Below are positions 5,409 to 64,000 of a DNA stretch of 64,000 nucleotides, piece by piece (the stretch's first letter is position 1; the number at the start of each line of letters is the position of its first letter). Source of the stretch: Escherichia phage myPSH1131. Made by a program: the position numbers and the translations under genes. The notes beneath the pieces were generated by a model. That model did not search any database, was not told where the DNA came from, and saw only the letters and a program-made list of their open reading frames with translations. The DNA is taken from sequence record MG983840.1. One strand, 5' to 3'.

Positions 5409-8400
5409 ATGATCGTTTATAACAACCAAGCACCTAAGAATGTTAACAATGTAGGACAATTTGGAGCTACTGAGGGAACTATTGGTGCTTATAAATCAGC
5501 AGCTGAATATGCAGCAGACTCTAAATATTGGGCATTGTTGTCCCAAACTAAATACTCCTCAGTAGAGGAGATTTTGGCTGAAGTAGAACGTCTGTATGCT
5601 CAAGGTCATCTACTGGAAGAAGACATTAAACAACTCAAGAGTGACTTTGAGTCACAAGAACAAGTGCTCTTAGGTTTGATTCAATCCACAGGAACTGCAA
5701 TTGACAACACCAATGCAGCAACTGAGCTTTCAAAAGAGGCAACTCAAAACGTTCTAGCACAACTTGACATTATCTCTAACATGACAGTTCAAACAACGCT
5801 TCTTCCTCCGGGAAGCCTAGCTACGGGGTCTTATGATAATGCAACAGGTGTCTTTGCTTTTGGTATTCCAGAAGGTAAACCGGGGCGTGATGGTACTGAC
5901 GGAACAATCGGTGATATTGGAAGCGTTCCTGTTGGTACCCCTGTTGTTGATGACTATGGTTTCTATGTAGATAAAGATGATGGTGGTTTATACCGAGCTG
6001 ACATGTCAGATATTGCCAACTTGATTCCATCTGTTCGATCTGTTTCAATCAATGGCGGCGCTGAACAAACAGGTTCAGTGGTTTTTGATTCTGTCTCCAC
6101 ATTCAATGGACGTAAGGGTGCTGTAGTTCCTGCTACTGGAGACTACACAGCTGCTCAAGTGGGAGCTTTTAGTGTAACTAATAACCTATCCGAAATAACC
6201 GACACAAGTGCAGCTATTACAAATATTGGACTCGCTGAGCATGGGATTGGTAGCCCTACCTTAACCAAAGTGAAGGCTATGGACTGGCAAACATTTAATT
6301 TTGTCAATGGAGGTAACTATTCAGTATTAATGTCGAATATTACAAATGCCCCTGCTGAGATAAATTATCCTGCCAATTATGGGTTATATCTTGAAGTCAT
6401 TGGCGTAGTTACAGGAGGAGGTGAGGTACGAGTGGTGCCAGGGACAAACAATAATAACTACTACTCAGTTTTCTCTGTAAGCTGGACTGGAGGAGTTGGT
6501 TCCCGAGTATTTACAGTACGAGAAGAGCTGTCTTCCGCTCGCCCTGTGACTATCTCTCAGGGTGGCACAGGGGCAACTACTGCAAGTGCTGCACGTACTA
6601 AACTTGGTTTAGGTTTGGTTTCCACTGAATCAATTGTACCTATTACCAAAGGTGGTACAGGAGCTACTTCATCAGAGAATGCTCGACTAGCTCTAGTTGC
6701 AGCTAAGAGTGGTGATAACTCTGATATCACCTCGATGACCAACAAGGTTACTTTCACACAATCTCCAGTAATTCCTGATGCTGTAGATGATAATGACGCG
6801 GTTGCTTTGAGACAGTTGCATACAAGTGAAGCAGATTTGCTGGCAAGGCTGAAAAGTAGTAATGCAGGTGAAGGTGCATCCCTTATTACCTTTGAAAATG
6901 GTAATTCTGTTGAGAGTCTTTCCAGTAAAGATGGGGCTAAAAACATTGGCAGTGGTGAGAGAAGTTTGCTTGTCCGTAACAACGACATTAAGCATTCAGG
7001 AGATTTCCCTACCTTACAAGCTGCGGTAAATGCATCGTTACCAAAAAACGACTTAATTGTTTCCCCCGGTGAATACAGTGAAGCGATTACTATTGGTAGT
7101 ACACAGTTAAAGGGTGTTGGTGGAGCCACGGTACTGAAAGCTCCGTCAAACTTTACAGACACTATTCAGGTTAAGGCATCTACGCCTCATTGGCAATTCC
7201 GCCATAGTGGTGGTTTTGCTATAGATGGTTCTGGGACAACCGGGGCTGTAGGTATTAGTTTTGACCCGACCGACCAATATGCTGGTCGTCACAACTTTAG
7301 TGACGTATACATCCATAACATTAACAAGGCCATTCAGAAACCTTCCGGGAATATAGGTAATACATGGAAAGGCATTGGCGTGCAAGGTTGTGACTGGGGT
7401 TACTGGGCACAGTCTGCTTCTGAGATGCACTTAGGCTCTGACACCCTTCAGAACATGCACTTTGATGGTATTAGCACTTACTGTGTTTACTTGAACGCTA
7501 CAACAGGAGAAGCGCCTGGTACATTCGGAGGTGGTGTAGGCGGCTGGTGGATTAAAGATAGTATTATGGAAGCCTCTGGCGGTGGTGGTATTTACCTCAA
7601 GAACAAGGATGGTGACTGCCCTACTGCCCCATGTGGTGTATCCAATGTATGGATGGAAGCTATCGCTACTACTCCAGCTATTAATGTAGATGGTGTATCT
7701 CAGAAGCCTCGTGTCCTTAAACTTATTGATACCAGTATCTTCTTTGCAGAGTACACATACCTTAATAACGTAGAGCTTCAGAACTCCAACCTTGTTACTT
7801 ATGGCTGCCGAGTAGATAATTCAGATGGCCACATGGATATCTCTGTAGATGCCAACAGCAGTTTTGTGGCTGATCAATTGTACCTGAATGGTAGCTCCGG
7901 CAAAGATGTAATGGTACGTTCTGTAGCGGCTCAGACAGGCAAGATTGGGCAAAGCTGGTCACCTAATATGAGTATGCGTGGATACCTGCCGGAAGGATAC
8001 ATCTATCGTGTACCTGGTAATAAGCTGGTAGCTAAACCCTTCGATGGAGGTACTGCTGAATTTAGTGGTACGGCAAGCAGCACTGGGAGTTTGCAGCCAC
8101 AAGGCCAGTTATCTCAGAGCTGCATGTACTTCGAAATCCCTGGTGCTGCTGAGTATGAGCTTACTGGTGCTGCATTTCAGATAACTTCCGGTAACTGGTA
8201 TGTATGGGGCATTAGCACTGAACTGGTACAGGGAACCCCTACAAACTTCCGCATCGGTGGAGATATCAATGTAGGTGAAGTATTTACTAAGGGGGGCCAG
8301 TGGGTGAGTACCTTTGGTGTAGCTCAGGCTAGTGCTTCCGGTTCAGTGAACCTGCGCCTAAGTACAGCCGGTACAGGCGGAGTAGTCCTACGCCTCGCTG

Positions 8401-8474
8401 ATTACTTCGTAGCGGAGTTCACTACTCAGGCAGAGGCTATGCGCTTCGCTAATAGTAGACGTGCCCTGCGTTAA
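5409..8474 (+). CDS. tail fiber / tailspike with beta-helix-like region
   Basis: 1021 aa. Collagen-like GKPGRDGTDGTIGDIG near the N-terminus; Gly/Asn-rich repeats typical of right-handed beta-helix tailspikes. Confidence 0.5.
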   Translation: MIVYNNQAPKNVNNVGQFGATEGTIGAYKSAAEYAADSKYWALLSQTKYSSVEEILAEVERLYAQGHLLEEDIKQLKSDFESQEQVLLGLIQSTGTAIDNTNAATELSKEATQNVLAQLDIISNMTVQTTLLPPGSLATGSYDNATGVFAFGIPEGKPGRDGTDGTIGDIGSVPVGTPVVDDYGFYVDKDDGGLYRADMSDIANLIPSVRSVSINGGAEQTGSVVFDSVSTFNGRKGAVVPATGDYTAAQVGAFSVTNNLSEITDTSAAITNIGLAEHGIGSPTLTKVKAMDWQTFNFVNGGNYSVLMSNITNAPAEINYPANYGLYLEVIGVVTGGGEVRVVPGTNNNNYYSVFSVSWTGGVGSRVFTVREELSSARPVTISQGGTGATTASAARTKLGLGLVSTESIVPITKGGTGATSSENARLALVAAKSGDNSDITSMTNKVTFTQSPVIPDAVDDNDAVALRQLHTSEADLLARLKSSNAGEGASLITFENGNSVESLSSKDGAKNIGSGERSLLVRNNDIKHSGDFPTLQAAVNASLPKNDLIVSPGEYSEAITIGSTQLKGVGGATVLKAPSNFTDTIQVKASTPHWQFRHSGGFAIDGSGTTGAVGISFDPTDQYAGRHNFSDVYIHNINKAIQKPSGNIGNTWKGIGVQGCDWGYWAQSASEMHLGSDTLQNMHFDGISTYCVYLNATTGEAPGTFGGGVGGWWIKDSIMEASGGGGIYLKNKDGDCPTAPCGVSNVWMEAIATTPAINVDGVSQKPRVLKLIDTSIFFAEYTYLNNVELQNSNLVTYGCRVDNSDGHMDISVDANSSFVADQLYLNGSSGKDVMVRSVAAQTGKIGQSWSPNMSMRGYLPEGYIYRVPGNKLVAKPFDGGTAEFSGTASSTGSLQPQGQLSQSCMYFEIPGAAEYELTGAAFQITSGNWYVWGISTELVQGTPTNFRIGGDINVGEVFTKGGQWVSTFGVAQASASGSVNLRLSTAGTGGVVLRLADYFVAEFTTQAEAMRFANSRRALR

Positions 8475-32713: not shown

Positions 32714-32722
32714 AAAGACCTC

Positions 32723-33106
32723 TTAGATAGTTAATTTGTGATCTTCCTCCGCTCTGTTTCTAACAGAGACGGCTTCTTCTAGGGTTGAGAAAGTTCCTAG
32801 GTATTTAGTTTTACCTTTACAGAGAAGCTTGACTTTATTTAATCGAGCACTCCGTTGTAAGAGTTCGACTAAGGAGTGATAAAAGAAAAGCCCTCGAGGA
32901 GAAATCCAAGAGGGTTTATCACACTTAAAGTGCATTGCCAATCTTCCTGTCTTTGGATTAATCTTCTGCTCTGTCTTGGCGTCTGCTAGTGCATCGAACA
33001 TGGGCTTCCACTTTCTAGTCAGAGAACGAATCCCTGACTTGATGAAAGAGTTGTAACGAGCTTCAGTCCACATTCCACTACAGCGAGTCTTCTCAGACTT
33101 CGCCAT
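32723..33106 (-). pseudogene. HNH N-terminal region joined to an AP2-like C-terminus (hybrid, HNH catalytic motif lost)
   Basis: First ~62 aa match the HNH at 26897..27298; then a junction to YLGTFSTLEEAVSVRNRAEED (AP2-like). Confidence 0.4.
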
Positions 33107-33285
33107 AATCAGCTTCTTCCCAAACTCGTTTGTTTACACGATGGCTTACTTTGCCCTCACGAGGAATACGACCAGTTCTCTGATCAAACAGTTGATGTTT
33201 AATCTTTTGGTCTTTACGAGATTCACGATTGGAGGAGTTTTCATCATATGAACGATAATCAAATTTACCCATTATAATATCCTTA

Positions 33286-34870: not shown

Positions 34871-35250
34871 TGAAGTCGTTCAATCATGAAATTGTAATCA
34901 ACTGCCTCCTGTGTCAGGTGAGTAAGAGCACCTACTTCATACCGAAGAACGTCAGCGTCAGCGTCCATAGTCGAACAGGTCTTCCGGAGTCTGACCAACA
35001 AAGAGCAGCCGAGCATTCTCAAGCATCTTCTCTTCATCTTCAGTATCGAACTTCTTATAATATTCCATTCGTACTATATGATACATGGTCCACTTATCTG
35101 TAACATCAGCTAGTAATTTAGCTGCTGCCTTCTTCCCTATACCTTGACGTCGAAGCTGAAGTTTACCACCCCACATAACCTCTTTACGTTCCCCACATCC
35201 GTAAAGTTAGATTGTTCAAGCGAAGATTAGAATCTTTCTTTAACATCTCA

Positions 35251-35667
35251 TTATATTACTACAGGTTCTTTAAATTCAGCTAGTGCATCATCAGCCTCTC
35301 TCCCAAATACATCTATGTATTCATATTTACCTTTAATATAATCACCAACATTTTGCCAGTGAAAAGGTCTCTCTCCGGGAGGTCTATTTGCTTTATAGTC
35401 TTGCTGCTTAGCAACATCAAAACGGAAGTTACCACCTTCGCTGAAGTAGAACACAACCTTGCTGCAACCTGAGCGAGCAATGATTGTATCTATCTTGTAC
35501 TGAAGTCGTTCAATCATGAAATTGTAATCAACTGGAACACGTCCTGTGTCAAGAAAGGGATGCTCCTGAGTAAGAGCACCCACTTCATATCGAAGAACGT
35601 CAGCATCCACTATAGCAACTTCAGGGAGCTTAACTTCTTCCATAAATATCATCCTGAGCTTGTGCAA
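35251..35667 (-). pseudogene. FEN exonuclease copy 3, N-terminal fragment
   Basis: 138 aa matching FEN residues 1-130, then a junction. Confidence 0.45.
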
Positions 35668-36425
35668 TAATCCAATCTAGATCTGATACTGCTGATTCAA
35701 TAGTTGAGTCATTAAACAGTAGATATGTTTTTCTCTGTTCGCCTTCAATATATGAGCGAGAGTCTCCATCAAAAGAGCAACCATCTCTAAGAACTTGGAC
35801 AACTTGGACATGGAAATTCTTTTCTAGTTCTCGTACCTCTGCATCAAAACCTCCGTCAGTAAACACGACAATATCATCCTGACCTAGCCCTTCTTGTTTG
35901 ATGCTTTTTACAGCAAGATCCCCCATATGATTGTTGCCAAATATAGGTTTTAAGAAGTCTTCACTTGTAGAAATCATCAAATCTCTTACAGACTTCCCTC
36001 CCCATTCTGGTCTAGGTTTTTCTTTCCATTCACGGTCTTCATAGCGTGCTAGAAAGTTTTCTAGAGGTATGCCTAGTGCAGCAGCAGCTACCTTGTACAT
36101 TGGCTCCTTGAAGGATTTGGTTGAATAATTGTGATGGTATGAATGGGCATTAACCCAAGCATTGGCTATCGTATCTTTACCACAACCCGGAGGCCCATTA
36201 AGAATTACTACTAAAGGCTTATAGTGGGAATCTCCCACCATATTGGTCAGTGCTGGATTGCCTTGAGATTCCATTTCTAATTGCTCCGTGTGGTCATGTG
36301 AGTAATCTACTGGAGAAGTTTTGTTACCAGTAACTTTAGGTAAAATCGCTCTAGTTGTTTCTACGTACCTACCGCCATCAACATTGATTTGAAACTCTAC
36401 AAGTTCATTCTGTAATTCATACCCT
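35630..36425 (-). pseudogene. P-loop kinase copy 3, lacking start and N-terminus
   Basis: Frame is open upstream of the track start back to a junction near 36425; no in-frame start codon. Confidence 0.4.
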
Positions 36426-36561
36426 GATAAGTTGGATAGCTCCCTGTCTGCTGTATTTAACTATTTACTTTAGCTTCAAGTGTTTCGAAATCCTTTAGAC
36501 AAGAAGAACCCGAACAGTTCAATACTCAAGTCAAATCTAAACCATCAGTGTGAACCCAAAT

Positions 36562-36723
36562 CATTCTTCTTCCTCATATTCCCAATTTCTTTCATAATAT
36601 CCAGAGTTATAGTTTAGGGCGCACTTCTCGGCCTCTTCTATGTCGTCGGTGTTTAGGATATTCACCCACCCTCCAGCTTCATCAAAACCTTCTTCTTCCT
36701 CGTTAATCCATACACTATATTTC
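36562..36723 (-). CDS. small acidic hypothetical protein (paralog of 41747..41947)
   Basis: 53 aa, MKKYSVWINEEEEGFDEAGGWVNILNTDD...; below the ORF-track length cut-off. Confidence 0.3.
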
Positions 36724-36724
36724 T

Positions 36725-37135
36725 TCATCGAATCACCAAAGGCTCTTCAGAGTACACAGGAGCGGCTATTTCTACAGGAGGTGCTGCCCTAAGGTCATTA
36801 AGTCTTACGCCCTTCAGCATACCGTCTAGGTGGTCCTTTTTGGGGATTCCAACAGGGAAGTCATCAATCCAGATATCGACGAAGAAGCCTAACTGTCGAC
36901 ACACCTCATCCTTCTGCACACCATTACAAAAGATGACAGGGATTTGCAGGGTCTCTGCATCATAGAGGATATCCACGTTATCATAACCATTAGGCTCTGA
37001 GAAACGGAAAGTCACGAATCTTACATCATGTCCATACCCTTTCATCAATCCTATCACATCTCTCCACAGTCGTCTGTCTGCTGTGTAAGTGTCATCATAA
37101 TCTAAACCAATATTCATGTCAAACCCTTTAGACAA
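36725..37135 (-). CDS. HAD-family phosphatase, 5'-nucleotidase-like
   Basis: HAD motif I DxDxT in NIGLDYDDTYT. Confidence 0.4.
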   Translation of the reverse strand: MSKGFDMNIGLDYDDTYTADRRLWRDVIGLMKGYGHDVRFVTFRFSEPNGYDNVDILYDAETLQIPVIFCNGVQKDEVCRQLGFFVDIWIDDFPVGIPKKDHLDGMLKGVRLNDLRAAPPVEIAAPVYSEEPLVIR

Positions 37136-37138
37136 GAA

Positions 37139-37165
37139 AAGCCGCCCGAAGGCAGCTTCTTATTT
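37139..37165 (-). terminator. terminator-like hairpin
   Basis: Minus strand reads GCTGCC-TTCG-GGCGGC then TTTTCTT; a near-identical copy sits at about 42465-42490. Confidence 0.45.
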
Positions 37166-37349
37166 AACTGTTCACTTTAGCTTCAAGTGTTTCGTTTTCA
37201 ATACTCAAGTCAATCACTACACCAGTAAGCTCAACGACTGCTTGGCGAAGGGCATCTTTACCCATAGAGTGTACTTGAGATAAGAAGAAAGCTTTACCTT
37301 CTTCAGTGGATAGGGTTTCTTTTAATTCAGAAGCAGTCATTGATATTCC

Positions 37350-37544
37350 TTATGTTATGTTATAAATTCGCATGATTGTACCACCGGTTAGTTCAATTTC
37401 GGCAATCTTCTCATCTCGTTCTAAATCTGTATACACTAGCACATTCTCAAATACACCTGTTGCGTCAGTATAAAGGATGTTATACTTCGGAGGTGGCTTA
37501 CGGTAGATACCTTCCATCACTCTTTCTCCTCTCGTTCTTTCCAC
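37350..37544 (-). CDS. hypothetical protein
   Basis: 64 aa ORF; paralog at 42675..42869. Confidence 0.3.
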   Translation of the reverse strand: MERTRGERVMEGIYRKPPPKYNILYTDATGVFENVLVYTDLERDEKIAEIELTGGTIMRIYNIT

Positions 37545-37700
37545 AGTTCAGCAAGTTCTAAATAAAACTCAGCTTCATCAGGACGTCCTTGTTCATTACA
37601 GATGGCGCTCTGACGATAACACCAATCCGATGGCATCTCTTCCACTTCAATCTCCTTGTTACGAACCAATCAATAAGAATAGTTCATTCATCTTATTTAT

Positions 37701-37892
37701 TCACTCTACCAATGCAGGTACTTCTATCCTTTTAACTGTGAATGACTTGTTTGGAAACTTTCGAACTAGCTCTGCTGCTTTGGTTATTGCTAAGTTCTCT
37801 GTCTCAAAGATACACAGTTGACCATTTAATGCTACGAGAGTGGAGCCACCACTGTAGATGGCCCAAGATTGATAATAACCACGAACACTCAT
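37701..37892 (-). CDS. hypothetical protein
   Basis: 63 aa ORF; paralog at 43026..43220. Confidence 0.3.
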   Translation of the reverse strand: MSVRGYYQSWAIYSGGSTLVALNGQLCIFETENLAITKAAELVRKFPNKSFTVKRIEVPALVE

Positions 37893-37900
37893 AACTCACC

Positions 37901-39745
37901 TTAGTGCGTATGCATCCAGTTAAGTCCAATCTGACAATCAGAGGCCAGAGGACATTCCATATTCAAATACTCACCAGCCTTCTTAACACAAAGCTCGGTG
38001 TGCTCTTTGAGTTTCTGTACATCGTTACGATTAACTGAGAACTGGCCCTCGTCGTGCATATCAATTACCTTAGCACAACGAACTCCATCCTTCTCAATCC
38101 ACTTGTTAAGGAACATCATAGCGTATTTCATAACAACAGCACCAGCACATTGCAGGAGAGTGTTAAGTGCTTTATGAACCATAACTTTACCAGTGGCATC
38201 TCGTCTCATTGTAATCTTACGACCATCAACACCAATCAAGTATCCTTGAGCAGCTTTCTCTGTCATACGATCAATGAGGATTGCAATACATGGGTTCTCT
38301 GCCAAGAAACGTGCTCGCATCACTGAACCTTCGTCAGCCCCACCACCTACAATTGAGCCAAGCTTAGCGTCGCCAGCACCGTAGTTGAATGCATAGATAA
38401 ACGTTTTAGCATTGTCACGAGTAGGAAGACCAGCAAGTTTCTGGTTGTGGGAGTGGATATCACCTTCAAGGAGAATATCACGATACATAATAGCAGAAGC
38501 TAAACCACGTTCTGCCAGAGCTTTCTTAGCTGGGTTGTTCTCTTCGATTGCCTCAGCAAGCATATCCCTACACTCTTTAATGAGGTAGTGAGCTAGCATA
38601 CGAAGTTCAAGTCCAGAACCATCATACCCTAAGAATACTTCTTTGCCAGCGGGTATGTAATATTTGTAAGCACCTATAGGTTTGTCTTTCTTCCCCGGCT
38701 TACCTTTCTCGTAAATTACGTTAGTACCTTTTCGTATATAACAACCATCAGGAACAACGTTAGTAATAACGAAAGGATGAGAATGATCACTGTCTGAGTT
38801 ATAGTCAGACTCAAACAAACTGCGGCACTCGTGACCAAACAAACCACGGGAGGGAATATTAACCACGATACGATGTTTGAATCGAAAAGTCGGCGTAGCG
38901 CAGCTGTTAGCTTCTGCCGAAAGTTTACCATCTTCGCGCTCCTTTGCTATGAGTCCACTGATAAGACCTAGCCTGTGAGCCGCTACAACGCGTCTCTTAA
39001 GCAAACTTCCGACACTCCCTAGCTCACCCCCTAACCCTTCTTCAAGGGTCTCCTCGAGGTTTGTAGGAGCTGTAGGCCACTTGTTTGATGTGGCTAGTGC
39101 TTTCTTAATCTCATCAAACGTTACAGGATTACGGCGATTAGGGTTTAATCCCAAACCAAATACGTAAGCCTTCATATAATTCTTAGTTTTAAACCTGAAA
39201 TGCTTTTCTAAGAACTTCTTAATATCAGCGTCAACCATCTCGGCTGTCTGCTTCTGCTTAGCATTGCCTCGCATCCAAGCAGTATACCATGCTTGGTACG
39301 TTCCATACTTTCTCATATCTTTCTTGATTTCGAAAGTATTCCAAGGCTTCTTAGATACGTTAAACTCTGGAGGAAGAAATCCCTCATCCATAAGAGCTTC
39401 TTTAACTCGTGCATCTTTCGATGGGTCAAAGTCTACGTATTCGACACAGGTGAAAGCTCCACCAATGTCTTCCCTCTTCAGCCCAACCCTATCACAATAG
39501 GCTTGAGGCCACTTCTGTAAAGCTCCAGACTTCTTAAACGGCTTCATATAAGTAGAGCCATCTAATCTCATCTTAGGTAAGAGAGGAATCAGTTCTTTGT
39601 CAATATTAACAATAATCTCTTTAAGGAGGTGAACATACCACCGAGCATTTCTTCGGTTGAAACTCACTCCGTGCTTTGCTTGCTTAGAGATTATATCAGC
39701 GACAGTCATCTCTGTCAAAAATGGAAGAGCGTCCGGGTTGCTCAC
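37901..39745 (-). CDS. DNA polymerase, family A, polymerase domain only
   Basis: Motif A LGYDGSGLELRMLAHY, motif B RDNAKTFIYAFNYGAG, motif C HDEGQF. No 3'-5' exonuclease motifs in this ORF. Confidence 0.85.
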   Translation of the reverse strand: MSNPDALPFLTEMTVADIISKQAKHGVSFNRRNARWYVHLLKEIIVNIDKELIPLLPKMRLDGSTYMKPFKKSGALQKWPQAYCDRVGLKREDIGGAFTCVEYVDFDPSKDARVKEALMDEGFLPPEFNVSKKPWNTFEIKKDMRKYGTYQAWYTAWMRGNAKQKQTAEMVDADIKKFLEKHFRFKTKNYMKAYVFGLGLNPNRRNPVTFDEIKKALATSNKWPTAPTNLEETLEEGLGGELGSVGSLLKRRVVAAHRLGLISGLIAKEREDGKLSAEANSCATPTFRFKHRIVVNIPSRGLFGHECRSLFESDYNSDSDHSHPFVITNVVPDGCYIRKGTNVIYEKGKPGKKDKPIGAYKYYIPAGKEVFLGYDGSGLELRMLAHYLIKECRDMLAEAIEENNPAKKALAERGLASAIMYRDILLEGDIHSHNQKLAGLPTRDNAKTFIYAFNYGAGDAKLGSIVGGGADEGSVMRARFLAENPCIAILIDRMTEKAAQGYLIGVDGRKITMRRDATGKVMVHKALNTLLQCAGAVVMKYAMMFLNKWIEKDGVRCAKVIDMHDEGQFSVNRNDVQKLKEHTELCVKKAGEYLNMECPLASDCQIGLNWMHTH

Positions 39746-39761
39746 TTTATACTCCTTTAAA

Positions 39762-40184
39762 TTATTGGTAAAGTAAATCTGTAAATGCTTGGTTATCTTC
39801 TACTACATTCAGCATGGTTGCTTCATCACTATAAGCCCTAACTGTCCCGTTGACAACTGTCCAAGGAGGGGGCGGAGGTGGTGTATGTGTAGCTCTGGCT
39901 TCACGAGGTTGTTCTCGTACCAGATGAGCCACAACCCTCTGATTAGCAACTTCTTCTCTTTCTCTAATAGCTCTCTGAATGTAGGCCAGCTTCATACCCC
40001 AAGCTTCTTCAAACTCTTGAGGGTGTTTATCACTGATAACCACATACTGACGTTCAGGAATACCAGAGCGAATCTCTGATAATAATTCATGGAACAAATC
40101 TAGTTCATGTTCAGTGAGATTCATTTCGATATCATCCCACTTGAGAACTAAGAAACGGTTTTGGTGTCTAGCTGGTAATGGCAT
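39762..40184 (-). CDS. hypothetical protein
   Basis: 140 aa ORF with a poly-proline stretch (PPPPPPW). Confidence 0.3.
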   Translation of the reverse strand: MPLPARHQNRFLVLKWDDIEMNLTEHELDLFHELLSEIRSGIPERQYVVISDKHPQEFEEAWGMKLAYIQRAIREREEVANQRVVAHLVREQPREARATHTPPPPPPWTVVNGTVRAYSDEATMLNVVEDNQAFTDLLYQ

Positions 40185-40347
40185 CCTACTCCACCTCTAC
40201 TTCAATGTAAGTTCTCTCACCGACGTCATCTTTTAAGACCCATGACTTGGCATCTTCTTCAGACTTAAAAGCTTTCACAACGCTGTAACCACCTTCCCAT
40301 TCATCACCGAACCAGCGCTGTCCTACGTAAATGTATTCTTTCATTAC

Positions 40348-40632
40348 TCAACCTTTTGGGAATGGCATCAAAAATTCCATAGCAGATTTAATCTCATTAT
40401 TGATTCGTGAATCACGATAAGAGATAAACTTACCTTTGCTATCACGTAACATCACATGGGTTCTGGCTGTTTTGTGAGGGAGCAATGTGATACTAGTTGG
40501 AATAGCATCAATCCCTACAGCGTATTTGTCAATAGTCTTACTTTCAGCCAACAGATAAGACCAAGTACGCGGTTTCTGCTCCGGGCGGTTAGGGTATGTG
40601 TCCCGAATTTGAACCATAGCTAACTTATTCAT
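40348..40632 (-). CDS. hypothetical protein, tandem paralog 1
   Basis: Shares a C-terminal GKFISY...PFPKG pattern with the adjacent ORF. Confidence 0.35.
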   Translation of the reverse strand: MNKLAMVQIRDTYPNRPEQKPRTWSYLLAESKTIDKYAVGIDAIPTSITLLPHKTARTHVMLRDSKGKFISYRDSRINNEIKSAMEFLMPFPKG

Positions 40633-40633
40633 A

Positions 40634-40888
40634 TTAAACTCCTTTAGGGAATGGGATGAGATTTTCTACTGCAACACGGAAAGATTTTTCTACGTTCTTA
40701 TTCTTATAAGAGATAAATTTTCCATCAGCTCCTCGAAGGAGTACGTTAGTGCGAGCTGTATTTGGGTTTTGTTGAATCATAGAACGAATGATGTTCTCTG
40801 AACCTCTATGCTTATTGGTGAATTTCCAACTGATAGTTTTACCGGTACGAGTTACATCAATGATATTTACGATTTTTACAATAGACAT
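40634..40888 (-). CDS. hypothetical protein, tandem paralog 2
   Basis: Ends ...GKFISYKNKNVEKSFRVAVENLIPFPKGV. Confidence 0.35.
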   Translation of the reverse strand: MSIVKIVNIIDVTRTGKTISWKFTNKHRGSENIIRSMIQQNPNTARTNVLLRGADGKFISYKNKNVEKSFRVAVENLIPFPKGV

Positions 40889-40957
40889 ATTTATTACCTA
40901 AGAAGTTTAATTTGGTTTATATAAAAGAAAAGGCCACCTGATTAGGCAGCCTTTGTT

Positions 40958-41251
40958 CTAGAGACGAAGCCAAGTTTGATAGTCAGCTTCAGTGTAATGG
41001 TTGTTTCGAGAGTTGTTTTTCATTTCCTTGAGAGTAGCTCTCAGGTCAATGTTATGCTCTCTCCTTGTTCTATTCGGGTCTGTATCTTCTAATAGATGGG
41101 AGTGATCACTACAAGAGTAGTGCTTATAGTGGTCCCTGTATCCTCTACTTGGAGAATACTTGGTCATTAAAGTTGCAACTCTTTTTACACCCTCTGCTTT
41201 ACAGAATTTACAATAAGTGTGAATTGTACATCTTTTTGTTTCTGCTGACAC
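40958..41251 (-). CDS. Cys/His-rich hypothetical protein
   Basis: CTIHTYCKFCK ... HYKHYSCSDHSH suggests metal binding. Confidence 0.3.
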   Translation of the reverse strand: MSAETKRCTIHTYCKFCKAEGVKRVATLMTKYSPSRGYRDHYKHYSCSDHSHLLEDTDPNRTRREHNIDLRATLKEMKNNSRNNHYTEADYQTWLRL

Positions 41252-41261
41252 TATAACCTCT

Positions 41262-41576
41262 TTATGAGCTTAAAGCTCCTTTGCGTGCTCCAGCTGCTTT
41301 TCCAGCTCGATCACCACTTTTGCCGCCGTTTGAACGGTTTGAGCTGACTGATTCAACACGTAAGTTGCTTGACGCATTAGAGCCTCCAGACTTGACAGCT
41401 CGTTTGTGTCCAACGTCTTTACCTCTGACAGCAGCTTTTCCATCGCGCTTTTCAACGATGCGACGTGCACGGTGGCGCTGAGCATCTCCGCTCTTGCTCC
41501 CAATTCCCGTTTCACCGCGCTTGATCGCAGTCCTTCTTTCTTGTGCATAATCTCTCTTTCCTACATGATCTGCCAT
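41262..41576 (-). CDS. small basic protein
   Basis: SD TAAGGAG and a TAATGTATA motif directly upstream on the minus strand. Confidence 0.4.
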   Translation of the reverse strand: MADHVGKRDYAQERRTAIKRGETGIGSKSGDAQRHRARRIVEKRDGKAAVRGKDVGHKRAVKSGGSNASSNLRVESVSSNRSNGGKSGDRAGKAAGARKGALSS

Positions 41577-41622: not shown

Positions 41623-41746
41623 AAGTTACTGTTAAGCTTTCTTTTCCATTGCTTTAACAATCGCCTTACAGAACCAGAACGAACAATGTCATCCGATTCT
41701 CCGTCTACAATCGCTTTCTTTCCAATTCTATAAGTGTGAACCCAAA

Positions 41747-41947
41747 TCATTCTTCTTCCTCATATTCCCAATTTCTTTCATAATATCCAGAGTTGTAGTT
41801 TAGGGCGCATTTCTCGGCCTCTTCTATGTCGTCTGTGTTTAGGATATTTACCCATCCTCCGACTTCATCAAAACCTTCTTCTACTTCGTTAAACCATACA
41901 CTATACTTTTTCATCGAGAGGTTCTTCCCCAATCTTTTACATAGCAT
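41747..41947 (-). CDS. small acidic hypothetical protein
   Basis: 66 aa; paralog of 36562..36723. Confidence 0.3.
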   Translation of the reverse strand: MLCKRLGKNLSMKKYSVWFNEVEEGFDEVGGWVNILNTDDIEEAEKCALNYNSGYYERNWEYEEEE

Positions 41948-42087
41948 CGACCGTTAACCCACTTTGTCTCTGACTTAAACTCTTGAGACAACCTCACTTC
42001 ACAGTCTTCTCTACTGGCATCTCCTCCGATATCAATCAGATACAGGAATAGAGCTATACCTAAAGCCCAAAGAATTATCTTCTTCAT
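41911..42087 (-). CDS. small secreted/membrane protein
   Basis: From the internal start MKKIILWALGIALFLYLIDIGG (signal or TM segment). Confidence 0.25.
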   Translation of the reverse strand: MKKIILWALGIALFLYLIDIGGDASREDCEVRLSQEFKSETKWVNGRCYVKDWGRTSR

Positions 42088-42139
42088 CGAATCACCAAAG
42101 GAGCAATTCCGCATTCTCTAAAAGTGGCAGGCATATAAT

Positions 42140-42460
42140 CTACATCACCTTCAGATGATGTATGACCAGCTCTCTTCGAGGAAGCATTCTAATCCAGATA
42201 TCGACGAAGAAACCTAACTGTCGACACACCTCATCCTTCTGGACACCATTACAAAAGATGATAGGAATCTGCAAACACTCTGCATCAATCTTAATGTCAT
42301 GATTATCGTACCCATTAGGCTCTGCAAAGCGATAAGTTACAAAGCGTACATCATAGCCCTTTTCTTGCATTAATGCCACTACAGAGCGCCACAGCTTTTT
42401 ATCTGAGGTGTAAGTGTCATCATAATCTAAACCAATATTCATGTCAAATCCTTTAGACAA
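42140..42460 (-). pseudogene. HAD-family phosphatase copy 2, C-terminally divergent or truncated
   Basis: Matches 36725..37135 through VDIWI, then diverges. Confidence 0.4.
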
Positions 42461-42674
42461 GAAAAGCCGCCCTAAGGCAGCTTCTTATTTAACTGTTCAC
42501 TTTAGCTTCAAGTGTTTCGTTTTCAATACTCAAGTCAATCACTACACCAGTAAGCTCAACGACTGCTTGGCGAAGGGCATCTTTACCCATAGAGTGTACT
42601 TGAGATAAGAAGAAAGCTTTACCTTCTTCAGTGGATAGGGTTTCTTTTAATTCAGAAGCAGTCATTGATATTCC

Positions 42675-42869
42675 TTATGTTATGTTATAAATTCGCATGA
42701 TTGTACCACCATTGGCTTCAATAGCAGCAACCATTTGGTTTCGTTCTTCATCCGTGTAAACTAACACACTTCTAAACTCGCCTGTTGCATCAGTATAAAG
42801 GATGTTATATTTTGGAGGCGGTTTACGGTAAATACCTTCCATCACTCTTTCTCCTCTCGTTCTTTCCAC
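42675..42869 (-). CDS. hypothetical protein (paralog of 37350..37544)
   Basis: 64 aa, about 80% identical. Confidence 0.3.
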   Translation of the reverse strand: MERTRGERVMEGIYRKPPPKYNILYTDATGEFRSVLVYTDEERNQMVAAIEANGGTIMRIYNIT

Positions 42870-43025
42870 AGTTCGGCTAGCTCTAGATAGAACTCAGCCT
42901 CATCAGGACGACCTTGTTCATTACAGATGGCGCTCTGACGATAACACCAGTCCGATGGCATCTCTTCCACTTCAATCTCCTTGTTACGAACCAATCAATA
43001 AGAATAGTTCATTCGTCTTATTTAT

Positions 43026-43220
43026 TCACTCTACCAATGCAGGTACTTCCATCCTTTTAACTGTGAATGTCTTGTTTGGAAACTTTCGAACTAGTTCTGC
43101 TGCTTTGGTTATTGCTAAGTTTTCTGTCTCAAAGATACACAGTTGACCATTTAATGCTACGAGAGTGGAGCCACCGCTGAAGACGGCCCAAGATTCATAA
43201 TAACCACGAACACTCATCAC
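43026..43220 (-). CDS. hypothetical protein (paralog of 37701..37892)
   Basis: 64 aa, about 90% identical. Confidence 0.3.
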   Translation of the reverse strand: MMSVRGYYESWAVFSGGSTLVALNGQLCIFETENLAITKAAELVRKFPNKTFTVKRMEVPALVE

Positions 43221-43585
43221 TCAACCTCAATATTATATAGAGTTTTCAGTGTATCTTTAATCCAAGTAATTCGTTTTTGGTTCTTGTGGTGTGATCTGTT
43301 ATCTCTATCTCTGAAATATTGGTCACAGCCAAAAGGGTATGTATGGTCCGAGAATTTATCTTGGTTAAACATGTTCTTCATGTCATCCACGTCTAGATGT
43401 TTTGTGAAATAATAATACTTCTTATAACAGCGGAAGTTGAAGCATAGTCCGTGATCTTCGTTAAACCAAGGAGGACACTCTTCTGTTTGAGTTATATGAT
43501 AATACTGGAGGAGGAAATCTTCCATCCCTCTCTCCTTGAATAAACACCTAAGTGTTCTATAGATTATATTAGTTTCTTTCATCAC
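43217..43585 (-). CDS. hypothetical protein, present only in the second copy of the block
   Basis: 122 aa ORF lying between the small paralog and the polymerase fragment. Confidence 0.3.
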   Translation of the reverse strand: MMKETNIIYRTLRCLFKERGMEDFLLQYYHITQTEECPPWFNEDHGLCFNFRCYKKYYYFTKHLDVDDMKNMFNQDKFSDHTYPFGCDQYFRDRDNRSHHKNQKRITWIKDTLKTLYNIEVE

Positions 43586-43590
43586 TCACC

Positions 43591-43956
43591 TTAGTGTGTG
43601 TGCATCCAGTTAAGTCCAATCTGACAATCAGAAGCCAGAGGGCATTCCATATTCAAATACTCACCAGCCTTCTTAACACAAAGCTCGGTGTGCTCTTTGA
43701 GTTTCTGTACATCATTACGGTTCACTGAGAATTGACCTTCATCGTGCATATCAATTACCTTAGCACAACGAACCTTATCTTTCTCAATCCATTTGTTAAG
43801 TAACATCATAGCATATTTCATAACAACAGCACCAGCACATTGCAGGAGTGTGTTAAGGGCTTTATGAACCATAACTTTACCAGTGGCATCTCGTCTCATT
43901 GTAATCTTACGACCATCAACACCAATCAAGTATCCCTGAGCAGCCTTTTCTGTCAT
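43591..43956 (-). pseudogene. DNA polymerase C-terminal fragment (second copy)
   Basis: 121 aa nearly identical to the last 121 aa of 37901..39745, including HDEGQF. Confidence 0.55.
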
Positions 43957-44038
43957 ACGATCAATGAGGGGTAATTACGATGCAGTGAACGCCCCATTTC
44001 AGGGTCATCACGCCTAGTGGAACCTGAAGAACCTGAAG

Positions 44039-47325: not shown

Positions 47326-47540
47326 TCTTGCTCCTTAGTTATTTGTTTCCATCTTCAACTGTTTCTTAGCAATACGAGCCTCTTTGCGAGTGTCAAACAA
47401 ACAATTTGATGTATATCTTTTCTCATGTTGCTCAAGATCCCAAACAACATGAAATTAACAGCTGAGTGTGGTGCATCAATAACACCATCATCAATTAATT
47501 TATGTAACTCTGGACTTCCTAGTAAACTCATTCTTATTCC

Positions 47541-48914
47541 TTAGTTATTTGTTTCCATGTCAAAAGAGATTCCACGACCCGCTTCATCGGCAAACCGAAC
47601 TGTACGGGTTTGAGGTTCTAATACTTCAGGGTTGTTAGCAATAAAGCGATCAGCGAGACTGCGGCTGACAGCCTCAGCGAGTTCCTCATGAGAAGGAGTA
47701 TCAAGATCGGAGAGACTGCCTACCACATCTTGGGCCACACCTTCATCAGTCCACACAGCCCTAACAGGTGCGTTGATATCACCAACAGCAAAACCCTGAC
47801 CAGAGAACTGACGTGCGCTAACAGTTAAGCCATTTGGTCGACCACGAGAGGGTCTAGCCATCCATCGCTCCATAGAATCACTTGTAACACCAAGAGCTTC
47901 TTCAAAAGATGTTCTACGAGTAGTAGGTCTTATTCTTCGTGACTCTTGTGCTCGACGCATTGCAGGGGCTACAAACACCCCTTCAATTGCATTGTGTCGG
48001 TTAGGTTCTTCTTCCCGACCAAGTAGGTCGCCACCCGTGTTGGTTGTTAAGTTTGTCAACCCTTCAGACCAATACGCACTAATCTGACTAGATCCATGAA
48101 CACTTGACATTAACTGGATTTCTTCATAAGGGATTCCAAATAATCGACTCATGTCACGATTAACACAATACTGAGCACTTGTTGTATCCTCAATAAGAGC
48201 AACCTGACCTCGTTCGTTGACCAGATGATTAATCGGTTGAGGTGTGGGAAGATATCGAGTTTGGGCCATGTATTGATGTGCAGCTGCTGGAGAGGAAAAT
48301 CTCAACACTTGCGAGTTAGGCCACTTCTTGTGAACATACCTGATTTCACGATTAGAAACAACCACTGGACAAGGAGCGGTCATAGCCAAATATCCGTGAG
48401 AGGTCATGAATAAGTTGTCAAGAGTCATCGCACCACGGCACATCATAGGAAAATTATCCAATACCTCTTCAATAGAAGTAGGATAATTAAACATGAATTG
48501 GATACGAACCCCATCCCACTGAAACTCAATAATATCAGTGAATGTTAATTGAGAACTCCCAGCATAGGATTCGTTTGTAGCTTCAGCAAGAAGGGATGCA
48601 TATTCAATATCTTGTGACTCTAACCATTCCTTCACATTACTTTCAATCTCTCTTCCAAGAGCTTGCCAACGATCAGTTGGGACGAAAGTATTTTGAGTTC
48701 TTGGTGTTTGTCCTCTGACAATAAAGATATCAATGTCATGTGGAGCTGTGTTATTAAGCACAGCATCACGAACAGCCCCACCAGTAATGATGGGACAGAT
48801 ACCGTCTGGAACTAAATTGTTGTTAATCAACTGTTCAATGAAGTGACGACCAACAGTGATATCAGGTTGTTGAGCAACCTTATCTTCAATTTGGTTAATC
48901 GGGATAACAATCAT
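47541..48914 (-). CDS. Pol-beta-superfamily nucleotidyltransferase, CCA-adding / poly(A)-polymerase-like
   Basis: Head-domain motif ITGGAVRDAVLNN...HDIDIF. Start moved to MIVIPINQ, 1 nt after the upstream ORF stop. Confidence 0.55.
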   Translation of the reverse strand: MIVIPINQIEDKVAQQPDITVGRHFIEQLINNNLVPDGICPIITGGAVRDAVLNNTAPHDIDIFIVRGQTPRTQNTFVPTDRWQALGREIESNVKEWLESQDIEYASLLAEATNESYAGSSQLTFTDIIEFQWDGVRIQFMFNYPTSIEEVLDNFPMMCRGAMTLDNLFMTSHGYLAMTAPCPVVVSNREIRYVHKKWPNSQVLRFSSPAAAHQYMAQTRYLPTPQPINHLVNERGQVALIEDTTSAQYCVNRDMSRLFGIPYEEIQLMSSVHGSSQISAYWSEGLTNLTTNTGGDLLGREEEPNRHNAIEGVFVAPAMRRAQESRRIRPTTRRTSFEEALGVTSDSMERWMARPSRGRPNGLTVSARQFSGQGFAVGDINAPVRAVWTDEGVAQDVVGSLSDLDTPSHEELAEAVSRSLADRFIANNPEVLEPQTRTVRFADEAGRGISFDMETNN

Positions 48915-48915
48915 T

Positions 48916-49410
48916 TTACATTTTCCAATATAATGAAGGTGGGTCGTAAGGGTCAAATCCCGTGAGTTCACACAAGAAAAGATAAACCTTAACAGTTAAG
49001 TTAACGTCCTGTTCACAATAAGTAAACATATCTTCAGTGAAAGCATCCCATGCTTCCTCTTGCTCACCATAATCGCCCTTAAGTTCTCCTAAGAACTCAC
49101 CCCACTGCTTCAAACCATGACCCCTTGGGCCACGTCTAGGGTCGCCTTTCGGATACTCAGGACTGTCACCAATACGGTCAGGTTTAAGATATCGACTAAG
49201 ACATAAAGTGTCGAAGACGTTAAAACGATAGTTAATCAGATTGGGATACATCTTCTTCAGAGCACAAAGGTCGAAGTCAATAATATTGTGACCCACCAGT
49301 ACATCTGCTTCTGTAAGTTTACGAATCCCATCTTCAATTTGGTGAGGCCGATAGCCCCACCTTTCACCAGTTTCAACATCGAAGATATAAATACACCATA
49401 CTAAAGTGCA
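48916..49410 (-). pseudogene. family A DNA polymerase 3'-5' exonuclease domain, N-terminus disrupted
   Basis: Exo motifs [14 protein letters not shown] and YCEQDV. A second Exo-I-like stretch FAFDIES lies in another frame, and there is no clean start codon. Confidence 0.55.
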
Positions 49411-49450
49411 TTACTCTCGATATCGAATGCAAACACTTTCTTCTTTTTCT

Positions 49451-50791
49451 TTACCACGGTGAAGCTCCATCTGCTTGGTTGACGAGAGAAGCTGCATCCT
49501 CTCCGTTAGTTAAAACGAATGGATTATCTTCATCAACTTCAAAGTCTTCCCTTTCTACAAGTCTCCCGGTTTCACTGATATACTTAGTATAGCAGACACC
49601 TGTCTGACCGTAGTTACGTTCTTTCAGTAATCGAATGACTGAGAGGTTCTTAGCTAAGCCATCAGCTTGCTTGTCACGCTCAAAGCCAATGATACACTGA
49701 CACCAACGCATAAGAGAACGAGAGCCAGTGAACTGCACTTCACGTACCTGTCCACCTTCTTCATGAGGAGCACCACCTGCCGGAGCATTAAGGTGAGATA
49801 GCACAAAAGCGGTAAAGTAAAGTCTAATTCTTTACACATACCAGCAAGCACCAGAGCGGTAATGTTATCAAGGATGATGAAACTACTTACACTGGTTTTC
49901 AACTACCCAGAAACGGATACACTGTTTAATGTCTTCCCATTCATTCTGTCCGAAGTTGTCATACAAGAAGAATTTGTCTGCATAACGAAGTGCTTCATTA
50001 CGCAAATCCTCCTCATCATATTCAACATCAGGTCGGTGGAAAGGAATTGATGCCGACTTACCAGCAATGTTCTTAACAGACATGCCTACCTTCTCTTCCA
50101 AGAAGAAGCCACCTCCATTAAAACCATGTTCTAAGCACAGATGAGCAACCAGCTCATGAGCAATGAGTGTTTTACCACTCCCTACTCCACCACCAATTGC
50201 TACCACCTCTCCCCATCGAATACCGAAGGTCATCTCATTCAGAGTCTTCCACGGATATGGGATACCCCACTCCGCTTTCTTCAGAGCATCATCAAGGCAA
50301 TCAAAGATTGTTACAGCACCAGCAGGAGATTCCCGCTTTGCTGAGTACTTGAGAATGTTGAATAACTCTTGACCACGACCAGACAGAAGCATGTCATTCG
50401 CATCCTTAATCTCTTTCTCCACACCGTTGTATGGGAAAGTTCCTTTAGGAATACGAGCAAACTTAACATGAGGGAATAAAGAACGACCTTTTGTTAAAGC
50501 TATCTCACCTGCATCATCGTTGTCCATGCAGAGCACAACCTCCTCAAAACCATTTACGAAGTCTCGATTACGAGACAACACAGAAGAGATTGAACCTGCA
50601 CCGAACGGTAAAGAAACACATGCTGGTTTGATGTTTGTTGCATTTGTAAAAGCTGTAAGGACATGGAAACCTGACATACAGGATAGCGGGTCTTCAAAAA
50701 TGAAAGAGATGCTCGGGAAGTAGGAACCACCGTAACGGACAACAGAGATCGAAGTTATCTTCAGTCCAACCTTCGCCAATGAGATTAGCAA
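49451..50791 (-). pseudogene. primase-helicase (T7 gp4-like), split over three reading frames
   Basis: TOPRIM CMDNDDAG and Walker A GGGVGSGKT in one frame, Walker B FIILDNITALV in a second, H3/H4 region APHEEGGQVREVQFTGSRSL...LKERNYGQTG in a third. Confidence 0.7.
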
Positions 50792-50896
50792 TAGTCCGTA
50801 AATTTTTAAACGGGTGACCTACGTAAATTACTTCTGACATTTAAAATACCTTTAGTCTTTCATGATGTTTTCAATGTAAGACCCGTTGCGTACGAC

Positions 50897-51076
50897 TTAC
50901 AGGGTGCAGTGCGTAGTGCCCTTTTCGAACACTTCGTAATTCCCACAACGGTTACAACTTCCCCACTCCTCACCAGTCTCTTCGTTACGGAAGAGAATCA
51001 TGTGGTTGTGGGTTTTATCACGACCATGAGAGATACATTCCTTACAACCTGTGTCTCCCAAAATGATCTTTGACAT
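50897..51076 (-). pseudogene. primase zinc-binding domain as a detached 59-aa ORF
   Basis: MSKIILGDTGCKECISHG...GSCNRCGNY (CxxC...CxxC), SD AAGGAGGA. Separated from the TOPRIM region by a GGCT-gene-like fragment. Confidence 0.5.
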
Positions 51077-51313
51077 GCTCTTCCTCCTTGGAATCCTTGA
51101 GCTTAGTAGAACGAACGAATTTCATCCCACACTTGTTCCTGTTCTTTCCTATAAAAAGAAAGTTGGGTCTTGAACATCTCCACTGATGATTCAAAGTTTT
51201 TGGTTTGTGCAGCTTCAACGAAACGTTCATGTCGGTTGATTTTGCACCGTAGCATTAAATACTTGGCTTCAAGTCTCCGAAGAGCTTACTCAATCTTTCA
51301 TGTTTCATAAAAC

Positions 51314-51688
51314 CTACCAGTCTTGTTCTTCGTCGATATGATAAATCCAAGCGATAACAGTTTCACCTGAGTCCATCTTAACAGCAATCTGAGTACGCTG
51401 ATAGAAGCTGTCTTCAGGGCTACGTTTGTTGTAACCTTCCAGACGGTCATACGGACCTTCCAGACCTGCTTTGTCAGTAGCAAACACTTCTACACGAACA
51501 GGCTTGTTGTTATTGCTGTGTGCGAGAGAGATGCTCGGGAAGTAGGAACCACCGTAACGGAACAGATCAAAGTTGTCTTCAGTCCAACCTTCACCAATTG
51601 ACTTAGCACCAGCTCGGTCATTAACTAAATAGTTAGCTTGACCACGACGAAGAGAACCATAAGTTGCTACGTAAATTACTTCTGACAT
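51314..51688 (-). CDS. gamma-glutamyl cyclotransferase-like (GGCT/AIG2 fold) protein
   Basis: N-terminal VIYVATYGSLRRGQAN fits the GGCT/AIG2 signature. Confidence 0.5.
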   Translation of the reverse strand: MSEVIYVATYGSLRRGQANYLVNDRAGAKSIGEGWTEDNFDLFRYGGSYFPSISLAHSNNNKPVRVEVFATDKAGLEGPYDRLEGYNKRSPEDSFYQRTQIAVKMDSGETVIAWIYHIDEEQDW

Positions 51689-51716: not shown

Positions 51717-51941
51717 TTATCCGACGTTAGCATTTAAGCGAAGTTCCTGAATCTTAGTGTCAATTGAGGGCCATAAGGAAGAACACGCACCATTGTTAGA
51801 TACCTTTAAGTTTAAGAATTTCGTTAGAACGCGATCTCCAATACGAACATCAATGCTGGAGGAATTAACAGCTGAGTGTGGTGCATCAATAACACCATCA
51901 TCAATTAATTTATGTAACTCTGGACTTCCTAGTAAACTCAT
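51717..51941 (-). pseudogene. dCTP deaminase N-terminal fragment (second copy)
   Basis: 74 aa matching the first ~40 aa of 46792..47325, then divergent. Confidence 0.45.
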
Positions 51942-51950
51942 TCTTATTCC

Positions 51951-62760: not shown

Positions 62761-63285
62761 CGATACCACGTTGCTTAAACGTACGTTGTCCTCTTGGAGA
62801 CGTGTATGCCGAAGTCGTTGCGTCGATGAAAAATCAATATCGTTTTGCGTAAACATGCCTACCACTGCAAACGCAGGGCAGAAATTGCTACGGTAACGAT
62901 GGTAGCCTGAACACTTGAACAACATCTTTTCATAGAAGGTCCAAGCGAGAATGGTTTTCTTGAGGATATTACTATCAGCATCCCTCATATCCATATGAAC
63001 GTGAGTAGAGCAACGCCAAGTCCCCTCGGCGTGCGATTCAGCTACTGCTTCACTCAGGTTGTTGATAGCGTCTAACAACTCCTGTCCATTGTAAGGTCGT
63101 GAACATACCATTTCACAACCATTACGCAGGGAACCATCCTCTGTACAATCCCACATATCTGCTTCGATATGATCGGAACCTTCGAGTTCAAGTTCAATAC
63201 CGACGCCGCACTGAAGTGCAATTGAACTATGCGCCTCAGTTAAACGACCTTCTCGATATCCAAAAGTTTGCGCTACAGTTGTCAT
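62752..63285 (-). pseudogene. amidoligase copy 2 (C-terminally truncated)
   Basis: Identical to 61120..61905 for about 140 aa, then diverges after CPAFAVV. Confidence 0.4.
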
Positions 63286-63899
63286 AACGAATCCACCAAC
63301 GTAATATTATAATTGCTAAGGTTTTCAGAAATGTGATGAAAGTGTTCCAGAAGTCGCATCGGTTGCTGACCGTAAGAGTCACGAGGTGCTTCCAGACCTA
63401 CTTGCCCTACCAGTGCACCTTTATAATGCACCTTACCATCAGTAGGGTTGATGTAAATATAACGAGTAACCAATCCCTCGAATTCAGGATTGAACAGACT
63501 GTAAACCATCTCCCCGGAGATAGCACGACCAACACCCGGAGCATTTCGAATCTTGTTACCCATCAAACCCTTTGCTCTCTGACGAACAGGGTTAATATGA
63601 GTCCAGCTTACAGTGTTACCGTTATGGAACAGATAACCAACATCAGGTGATTCAAGAATCAAGGTTGGGTCGAACACTGGAATATTCATCGTAGTGTTTC
63701 GAAGGTGCCCTTGCTCATTCTTGTACCACTGCTCTACAACAAAATACAGAGCCTGCTCTGCTTCGTGAGAGAAGTCATCGCTGCGGAAGTTACCGCTCTG
63801 CTCAACACCAATCACAAAACATGGAAGGTTGATATTACCTGCTCGTTTAGCAATCCATGTACCATTATAGTAATGAGAAAAATCAGCTACTAAGCTCAC
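63282..63899 (-). CDS. hypothetical protein P, copy 2
   Basis: 205 aa, about 93% aa identity to 61902..62519. Confidence 0.35.
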   Translation of the reverse strand: MSLVADFSHYYNGTWIAKRAGNINLPCFVIGVEQSGNFRSDDFSHEAEQALYFVVEQWYKNEQGHLRNTTMNIPVFDPTLILESPDVGYLFHNGNTVSWTHINPVRQRAKGLMGNKIRNAPGVGRAISGEMVYSLFNPEFEGLVTRYIYINPTDGKVHYKGALVGQVGLEAPRDSYGQQPMRLLEHFHHISENLSNYNITLVDSL

Positions 63900-63908
63900 G
63901 ATAACCTC

Positions 63909-64000
63909 TTATGCTACCTGAAGGAGTTTGATCTGCTGGTCAGCTTCTTTAACGTTGTTCCCGTTAATGATTTCATGAAGCTTCTCAATCGGAAGGCGAG
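63909..64000 (-). CDS. gene W, 3' end (5' part lies beyond the window)
   Basis: Bases 63901-64000 are identical to 62521-62620. Confidence 0.3.
   Translation of the reverse strand, partial: RLPIEKLHEIINGNNVKEADQQIKLLQVA

Follow-up and report, generated by a model that had tools for sequence, protein, structure and literature searches.

The broken primase-helicase gene in the Escherichia phage myPSH1131 record very probably reflects faulty assembly

Pieces of a primase-helicase gene

We analyzed a stretch of 64 kb from the record of Escherichia phage myPSH1131 (MG983840), hereafter called the window. The list of open reading frames and their translations revealed, on the minus strand between 49451 and 51076, four ORF pieces of a T7 gp4-like primase-helicase:

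50897..51076, minus strand: zinc-ribbon ORF of 59 aa, with the Cys4 motif CKEC...CNRC
49883..50791, minus strand: TOPRIM/Walker A ORF of 302 aa, with VLCMDNDDAGE and GGGVGSGKT, in frame -1
49654..49902, minus strand: Walker B ORF of 82 aa, whose start reads FIILDNITALV, in frame -2
49451..49804, minus strand: H3/H4 ORF of 117 aa, with SHLNAPAGG...GSRSLMRWCQCII, in frame -1

The Walker A, Walker B, H3 and H4 motifs are all recognizable in the DNA, with Walker B in another frame. Used as a query, the 302-aa ORF found no near-identical kuravirus protein; its matches were all distant (<=61%) or partial. To place the pieces, we compared the locus base by base with gp75 of phage phiEco32 (YP_001671820.1), which is encoded in one ORF of 596 aa. 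Read from the start of the gene, the comparison gives the following segments:

50912..51076, minus strand: zinc-ribbon part, gp75 residues 1-55, with 100% identity to these residues of phiEco32 gp75 in tblastn
50706..~50912 (207 nt), minus strand: filler in place of gp75 residues 56-164, replacing phiEco32 51220-51546 (327 nt)
49885..50705, minus strand: gp75 residues ~165-441, with the TOPRIM subdomain, the linker, Walker A and helicase motif 1a, in frame -1, 98.5% identical to phiEco32 in nucleotides
49881..49884, minus strand: insertion of 4 nt (TAGT on the coding strand) directly before Walker B, changing the frame from -1 to -2
49817..49880, minus strand: out-of-frame stretch FIILDNITALV/LAGMCKELDFT in frame -2, where the slash marks the junction of a 54-nt deletion
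49812..49816, minus strand: tandem duplication of 5 nt (TTTAC on the coding strand), after which the frame returns to -1
49451..49811, minus strand: gp75 residues ~479-596, with helicase motifs H3/H4 and the C-terminal tail, in frame -1 and reading to the stop codon

The zinc-ribbon ORF continues past gp75 residue 55 for 4 unrelated codons and then meets a stop. Pfam profiles gave matches to Toprim_2 and DnaB_C in the part covering residues ~165-441, both of them weak. Around Walker B, the 4-nt and 5-nt insertions bracket the stretch in frame -2 and together add 9 nt; within this shifted stretch, frame -1 contains four stop codons. The 54-nt deletion is in frame, has its junction at 49848/49849, and removes SHLTPSEINTEISKIASE between Walker B and H3. 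Its endpoints have at most 1 nt in common, which led us to reject a deletion driven by microhomology. When both insertions (4 + 5 nt) were removed in silico, we obtained one ORF corresponding to gp75 residues 157-596 minus 18, and ~98% identical to gp75.

The filler is composite. One part comes from the start of the GGCT gene, in garbled form and with indels (50702-50790 and 50819-50853). Another part duplicates the intergenic sequence found ahead of the GGCT copy at 53612-53675, and 22 nt (50881-50902) lack a match among the reference sequences compared. To its right, collinearity with phiEco32 restarts at window position 50913, which corresponds to phiEco32 51547. No copy of gp75 residues 56-164 (109 residues) was found anywhere in the 64-kb window. 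Neither flank is free of changes:

48916..49407, minus strand: 3'-5' exonuclease subunit (gp74 homologue), whose N-terminus is gone, leaving a 111-aa remnant (AVQ10069.1)
51103..51688, minus strand: gp76 homologue (50 aa, AVQ10071.1) and main GGCT copy (124 aa instead of 139)

The exonuclease subunit gene has a deletion of 16 nt near 49402, and the gp76 homologue and the main GGCT copy are joined via a garbled segment of 40 nt (~51286-51326).

A sequence-only reading of this locus had described a fragmented T7 gp4-like primase-helicase, and the minus-strand ORF pieces bear this out. It had spread the motifs over three frames, whereas there are two: frame -1 holds both the 302-aa and the 117-aa piece, and frame -2 just the ~70 nt at Walker B. 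It had also taken the Walker B-H3 spacing to be shorter than in T7 gp4; the spacing in the window is indeed 18 residues shorter than in both phiEco32 gp75 and T7 gp4. The zinc ribbon does lie on a separate 59-aa ORF, but this is not a detached domain architecture: it is what was left after a mis-join took out residues 56-164. Similarly, the fragment of the GGCT gene that was thought to replace the RNA-polymerase domain does so for the N-terminal subdomain (residues 56-164), and not for the TOPRIM subdomain, which is retained. The lesions of 4, 54 and 5 nt and the filler at 50706-50912 were placed by the comparison with phiEco32, and the alignment of gp75 to T7 gp4 structures puts the 18 missing residues between Walker B and H3.

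The gene in related phages

In phiEco32 and ES17, gp75 is a single ORF of 1791 nt located between the genes of the exonuclease subunit and gp76/GGCT. In IMG/VR, seven relatives have single full-length matches to the primase-helicase, and an eighth (UViG_3300045988_017452) has a gene broken by an intron alone. The protein belongs to the core of this phage group, where it is among the five most conserved, with 94.4-96.5% amino acid identity (PMC9965538).

The lesions of the window were not found in these relatives. The junction at 50705 is spanned in none of the 89 phage records matching the interval 50560-51000. For the interval 49720-49980 there are 135 matching records, among them the sister record myPSH2311. 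All of these lack the 54-nt deletion and the indels, and are 45 nt longer than the window over this interval. The lesions are deterministic differences from more than 100 relatives, not chance patterns of ORFs. We also searched public collections for the exact strings spanning the 50705 junction and the junction of the 54-nt deletion. Neither had a match in IMG/VR, which does contain intact kuravirus relatives and thereby provides a positive control, or in the JGI metagenomes, and the 50705 string had no match in GTDB genomes either.

Residues 61-150 of gp75 vary more between close strains than any other part of the gene. This makes them a plausible site for assembly bubbles and contig breaks in mixed data, and their variability may explain why myPSH1131 and myPSH2311 both break in the primase interval.

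Rearrangements across the window

The damage extends over the whole window. A 20-kb query aligned to SU10, ES17 and phiEco32 at 95-97% nucleotide identity over 92-94% of its length, in 21-24 pieces per record. The gene content matches that of Kuravirus (phiEco32-like podophages), and the gene order is upset by duplications. Relative to phiEco32, the window consists of 52 blocks that have one orientation throughout and follow the approximate order of the reference, with 10 back-steps. Across the reference span, 12.5 kb are missing, 7.6 kb occur in two copies, and 2.8 kb in at least three. All 35 internal repeat pairs of the 64-kb window are direct (71-100% identity), and diverged direct duplications of 1-2 kb (87-96% identity) occur throughout:

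16184-18872 and 23305-26384: direct duplication pair
27112-29195 and 32920-36443: direct duplication pair
36544-38279 and 41710-43969: direct duplication pair
47453-49035 and 51863-53385: direct duplication pair
53854-55173, 55278-56490 and 56590-58201: direct triple copy of the gp78-gp80 (ATP-grasp) region
61480-62620 and 62860-64000: direct duplication pair

Essential functions are affected. The scaffold gene was not found in the 64-kb window, the major capsid protein is represented by residues 158-352 only (the C-terminal half of the gene, 3433-4017), and the portal gene is frameshifted. The genes of PhoH, ThyX, GFAT and amidoligase are truncated, as are all three copies of the ATP-grasp gene. 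A genome as written here cannot make virions. The phage myPSH1131 was nevertheless propagated and characterized as a lytic phage (PMC6200275).

The duplicated genes point to several sources. One of the two gp24 copies matches exactly the ES17-type allele and the other matches exactly alleles of ENA metagenome scaffolds. Of the two NTase copies, one is of the ES17/myPSH2311 type and the other is found only in myPSH1131. Judging from these sequences, the duplicates appear to be alleles that occur naturally in different strains. One natural contig, SRR14479767_355 in Logan, belongs to the strain of the window: it is 99.98-100% identical to the window at 36544-41543 and 30930-32819, and it lacks the duplicated insert of 3.7 kb that the window has between these two stretches.

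We made several further observations in the window. The GFAT-like gene (gp83 homologue) is split by a perfect tandem duplication of 76 nt (60392-60467 and 60468-60543), as if two consecutive contigs had overlapped without being merged. A repeat of 208 nt (47453-47660 and 51863-52070), covering the 3' end of the nucleotidyltransferase gene and a fragment of the dCTP-deaminase start, is 100% identical between its copies while the flanks on both sides differ by ~7-10%, which is consistent with a region common to two strains. An ORF of 129 aa (24276-24665, plus strand) has a strong Endonuclease VII domain (PF02945, E 6e-26). It is flanked by the second copies of the ejection-protein genes gp23 and gp24, a position at which phiEco32 has no such ORF, and is probably the homing endonuclease of one strain. 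Within 5649-8614, at the ORF of the 1021-aa tail fibre (5409..8474), ~2.6 kb lack a nucleotide match to phiEco32 or to the other loci compared; this is presumably natural host-range variation rather than an artefact. Finally, linkers of 20-240 nt lie exactly at the block junctions (e.g., 58202-58444, 55222-55277, 56529-56589 and 62761-62859). They had no match among the kuravirus references compared, and could represent contig ends of low quality.

The deposited proteins and the sister record

The deposited proteins of myPSH1131 agree with the window down to its defects. AVQ10068, AVQ10069, AVQ10070 and AVQ10071 occur in the window as exact sub-ORFs, in unchanged order. AVQ10068 is the NTase (457 aa). 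AVQ10069, the 111-aa remnant of the exonuclease, was deposited as "DNA polymerase", and AVQ10070.1, deposited as "primase/helicase", is a C-terminal fragment of 86 aa (49451-49711, starting MRWCQCII). Two other deposited proteins, AVQ10016 and AVQ10019, are the two gp24 copies of the window. The published procedure was to assemble NextSeq reads de novo with CLC and to pass the scaffolds through CONTIGuator2 against a downloaded reference, which gave the "final assembly" (PMC6200275).

The record of myPSH2311 (MG976803), from the same laboratory, has many 100%-identical blocks and the triple ATP-grasp repeat in common with the window. Its primase-helicase is also truncated (21766-21985): the same interval is lost, with the same right-hand breakpoint (phiEco32 51547). 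The gap is filled by ~170 nt of GC-richer sequence, which differs from the filler of the window. This filler matched neither E. coli genomes nor any other phage record. The breakpoint common to the two records does not count as two independent observations, given the same laboratory, the same pipeline and the many 100%-identical blocks. It could in principle reflect a genuine lineage feature at which short-read assembly failed, for instance a mobile insertion (intron or homing endonuclease, as in UViG_3300045988_017452) or a strongly divergent N-terminal subdomain of the primase. We regard such a feature as improbable.

Origin of the broken gene

We conclude with high confidence that the window arose by faulty assembly of a phiEco32-like coliphage genome (Kuravirus), and that the broken gene is not biology. 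In place of the single ORF and single polypeptide of a T7 gp4-like enzyme, the window holds four ORF pieces. The RNA-polymerase domain is incomplete: TOPRIM is kept, and the N-terminal subdomain (residues 56-164) is missing from the whole window. We attribute both failings to the assembly and its record rather than to the phage. In the phage, the gene is almost certainly a single intact T7 gp4-like ORF of ~596 aa, whose product almost certainly unites a zinc ribbon, a TOPRIM-containing RNA-polymerase domain and a hexameric helicase of the DnaB type. What lies underneath is the usual kuravirus primase-helicase, a highly conserved member of the gp75 family that acts in the manner of T7 gp4. The sequence-only reading had implied an error in the sequence, and this suspicion was right; local frameshift errors were too narrow an account of it, since the 64-kb window is a mosaic.

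A sequence of events of the following kind would produce the record. The lysate would have contained more than one closely related kuravirus strain, and the reads would have been assembled de novo. The redundant contigs would then have been oriented and placed one after another along a reference genome. The resulting pseudomolecule would lack some segments, contain others as diverged direct duplications, and include short junk linkers. In the primase-helicase gene, one contig would end at 50705, followed by a small garbled fragment of the GGCT start and by the next contig from 50913. Near Walker B, a local assembly error would have left the 54-nt deletion flanked by the insertions of 4 and 5 nt. 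We infer the mixed-strain origin and the exact step behind each lesion, and the junctions presumably lack read support. The duplicated blocks have the single orientation, the approximate reference order and the strain-allele divergence of a reference-guided concatenation. The procedure itself is documented in the description of the assembly with CONTIGuator2 (PMC6200275), and the exact matches of AVQ10016, AVQ10019 and AVQ10068-AVQ10071 tie the window to that record. Plain concatenation is insufficient to explain the 4-nt and 5-nt insertions and the unmatched linkers, for which we assume an extra local error of the assembler or of gap filling.

Two alternatives take the broken gene as it is written. 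The window could represent a true molecule, i.e., a defective rearranged phage genome or subpopulation in which the primase-helicase is a pseudogene and which is kept by intact co-infecting helpers. The diverged alleles do point to several related strains in the sample, which makes complementation conceivable, and the lesions at Walker B compensate each other in frame (+4, -54, +5). However, the duplicated blocks are 5-13% apart and match different natural strains, unlike the products of duplication within one genome. Furthermore, 52 out of 52 blocks are co-oriented and keep roughly to the order of the reference with back-steps, the hallmark of a layout guided by a reference. The genes of the capsid, the scaffold, the portal and many other proteins are damaged simultaneously, and the junctions recur in none of the public collections scanned. 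The published assembly method explains this pattern (PMC6200275), and we consider a true molecule very unlikely.

Alternatively, the gene could be functionally split, either into separate primase and helicase polypeptides, by programmed frameshifting, or by a mobile element (intron or homing endonuclease). T4 and other phages encode primase and helicase separately, which counts in favor of this idea, and there is a precedent among the relatives. In the IMG/VR sequence UViG_3300045988_017452, a group I intron (2987-3607; RF00028, 48.6 bits against a gathering score of 50, E 3e-11) that carries an HNH_3 endonuclease ORF (3143-3478) is inserted at RSLMR/WCQCII in the helicase domain. The 85-aa C-terminal ORF created in this way (starting WCQCII) belongs to a cluster at 90% identity with members on at least 50 public contigs. 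In the window, however, this site is contiguous, there is no intron or other Rfam match at 49300-51400, and no endonuclease ORF lies there. The catalytic Walker B is out of frame, with four stop codons in frame -1 of the shifted stretch, and what fills the gap is a garbled fragment of a neighboring gene. Above all, the 109 residues of the RNA-polymerase domain that are missing have no copy elsewhere in the window, which essentially refutes a functional split. We therefore rejected a programmed frameshift or split gene on the stop codons, the absent residues and the lack of an intron, and its probability seems to us close to nil.

A last alternative is that the sequence was deliberately scrambled or generated by a computer from kuravirus genomes. 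The lack of the junction strings in all searched collections fits such an origin, and the small tandem slips and varied near-repeats look like those of generated text. Yet the oddly truncated deposits (the 86-aa "primase/helicase" and the 111-aa "DNA polymerase") are exact, ordered sub-ORFs of the window, the public record of myPSH2311 shares the triple repeat and numerous blocks at 100% identity, and stretches of 5 kb are 99.98-100% identical to an independent Logan contig. The ordered exact matches to deposited proteins and the 100% blocks in independent contigs make a synthetic sequence about as unlikely as a true defective molecule. Overall, faulty assembly is left with only marginal rivals because the window combines strain-specific alleles, a layout following the reference, missing essential genes and exact deposited proteins.

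These results matter beyond the gene itself. The record of myPSH1131 serves ICTV as the exemplar for a species, and a genus has been proposed with it as founder. As written, it lacks or truncates many essential genes and contains ~10 kb of false duplications, which calls for a data-quality flag. Genome-similarity values, pangenome counts, and models trained on this record take on its errors.

Comparison with known systems

The window resembles CONTIGuator-type pseudomolecules and haplotig-style artefacts in its diverged copies, which are exclusively direct, in its reference order with back-steps, in the truncation of genes at block ends, and in the unmerged exact overlap of 76 nt at 60392-60543. 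It differs from them by the indels of 4, 5 and 16 nt and by the linkers of 20-240 nt, which need an additional source of error. The genuine natural way to split the kuravirus primase-helicase is the intron found in relatives. Like the lesions of the window, the group I intron divides the gene into separate ORFs, including the 85-aa C-terminal one. However, it does so at another site, with intact exons and with a recognizable intron and endonuclease, none of which the window has.

Intact gp75 aligns with T7 gp4 (PDB 1q57, 5ikn and 6n7i) over residues 117-571 with an E-value of 1e-32. The alignment takes in TOPRIM, Walker A, Walker B, H3 and H4 with an equal Walker B-H3 spacing, and an N-terminal Cys4 zinc ribbon is present as in T7 gp4. 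The differences from T7 gp4 are the low sequence identity and the fact that the protein as written in the window is impossible as one chain. The closest counterpart is phiEco32 gp75, from which the window differs by the GGCT-derived filler in place of residues 56-164, the deletion of 18 residues and the two frameshifting insertions. The fragments in the window are 98-100% identical to its residues 1-55 and ~165-596 (18-residue deletion aside), and they lie in the same neighborhood of NTase, 3'-5' exonuclease, primase-helicase, gp76 and GGCT.
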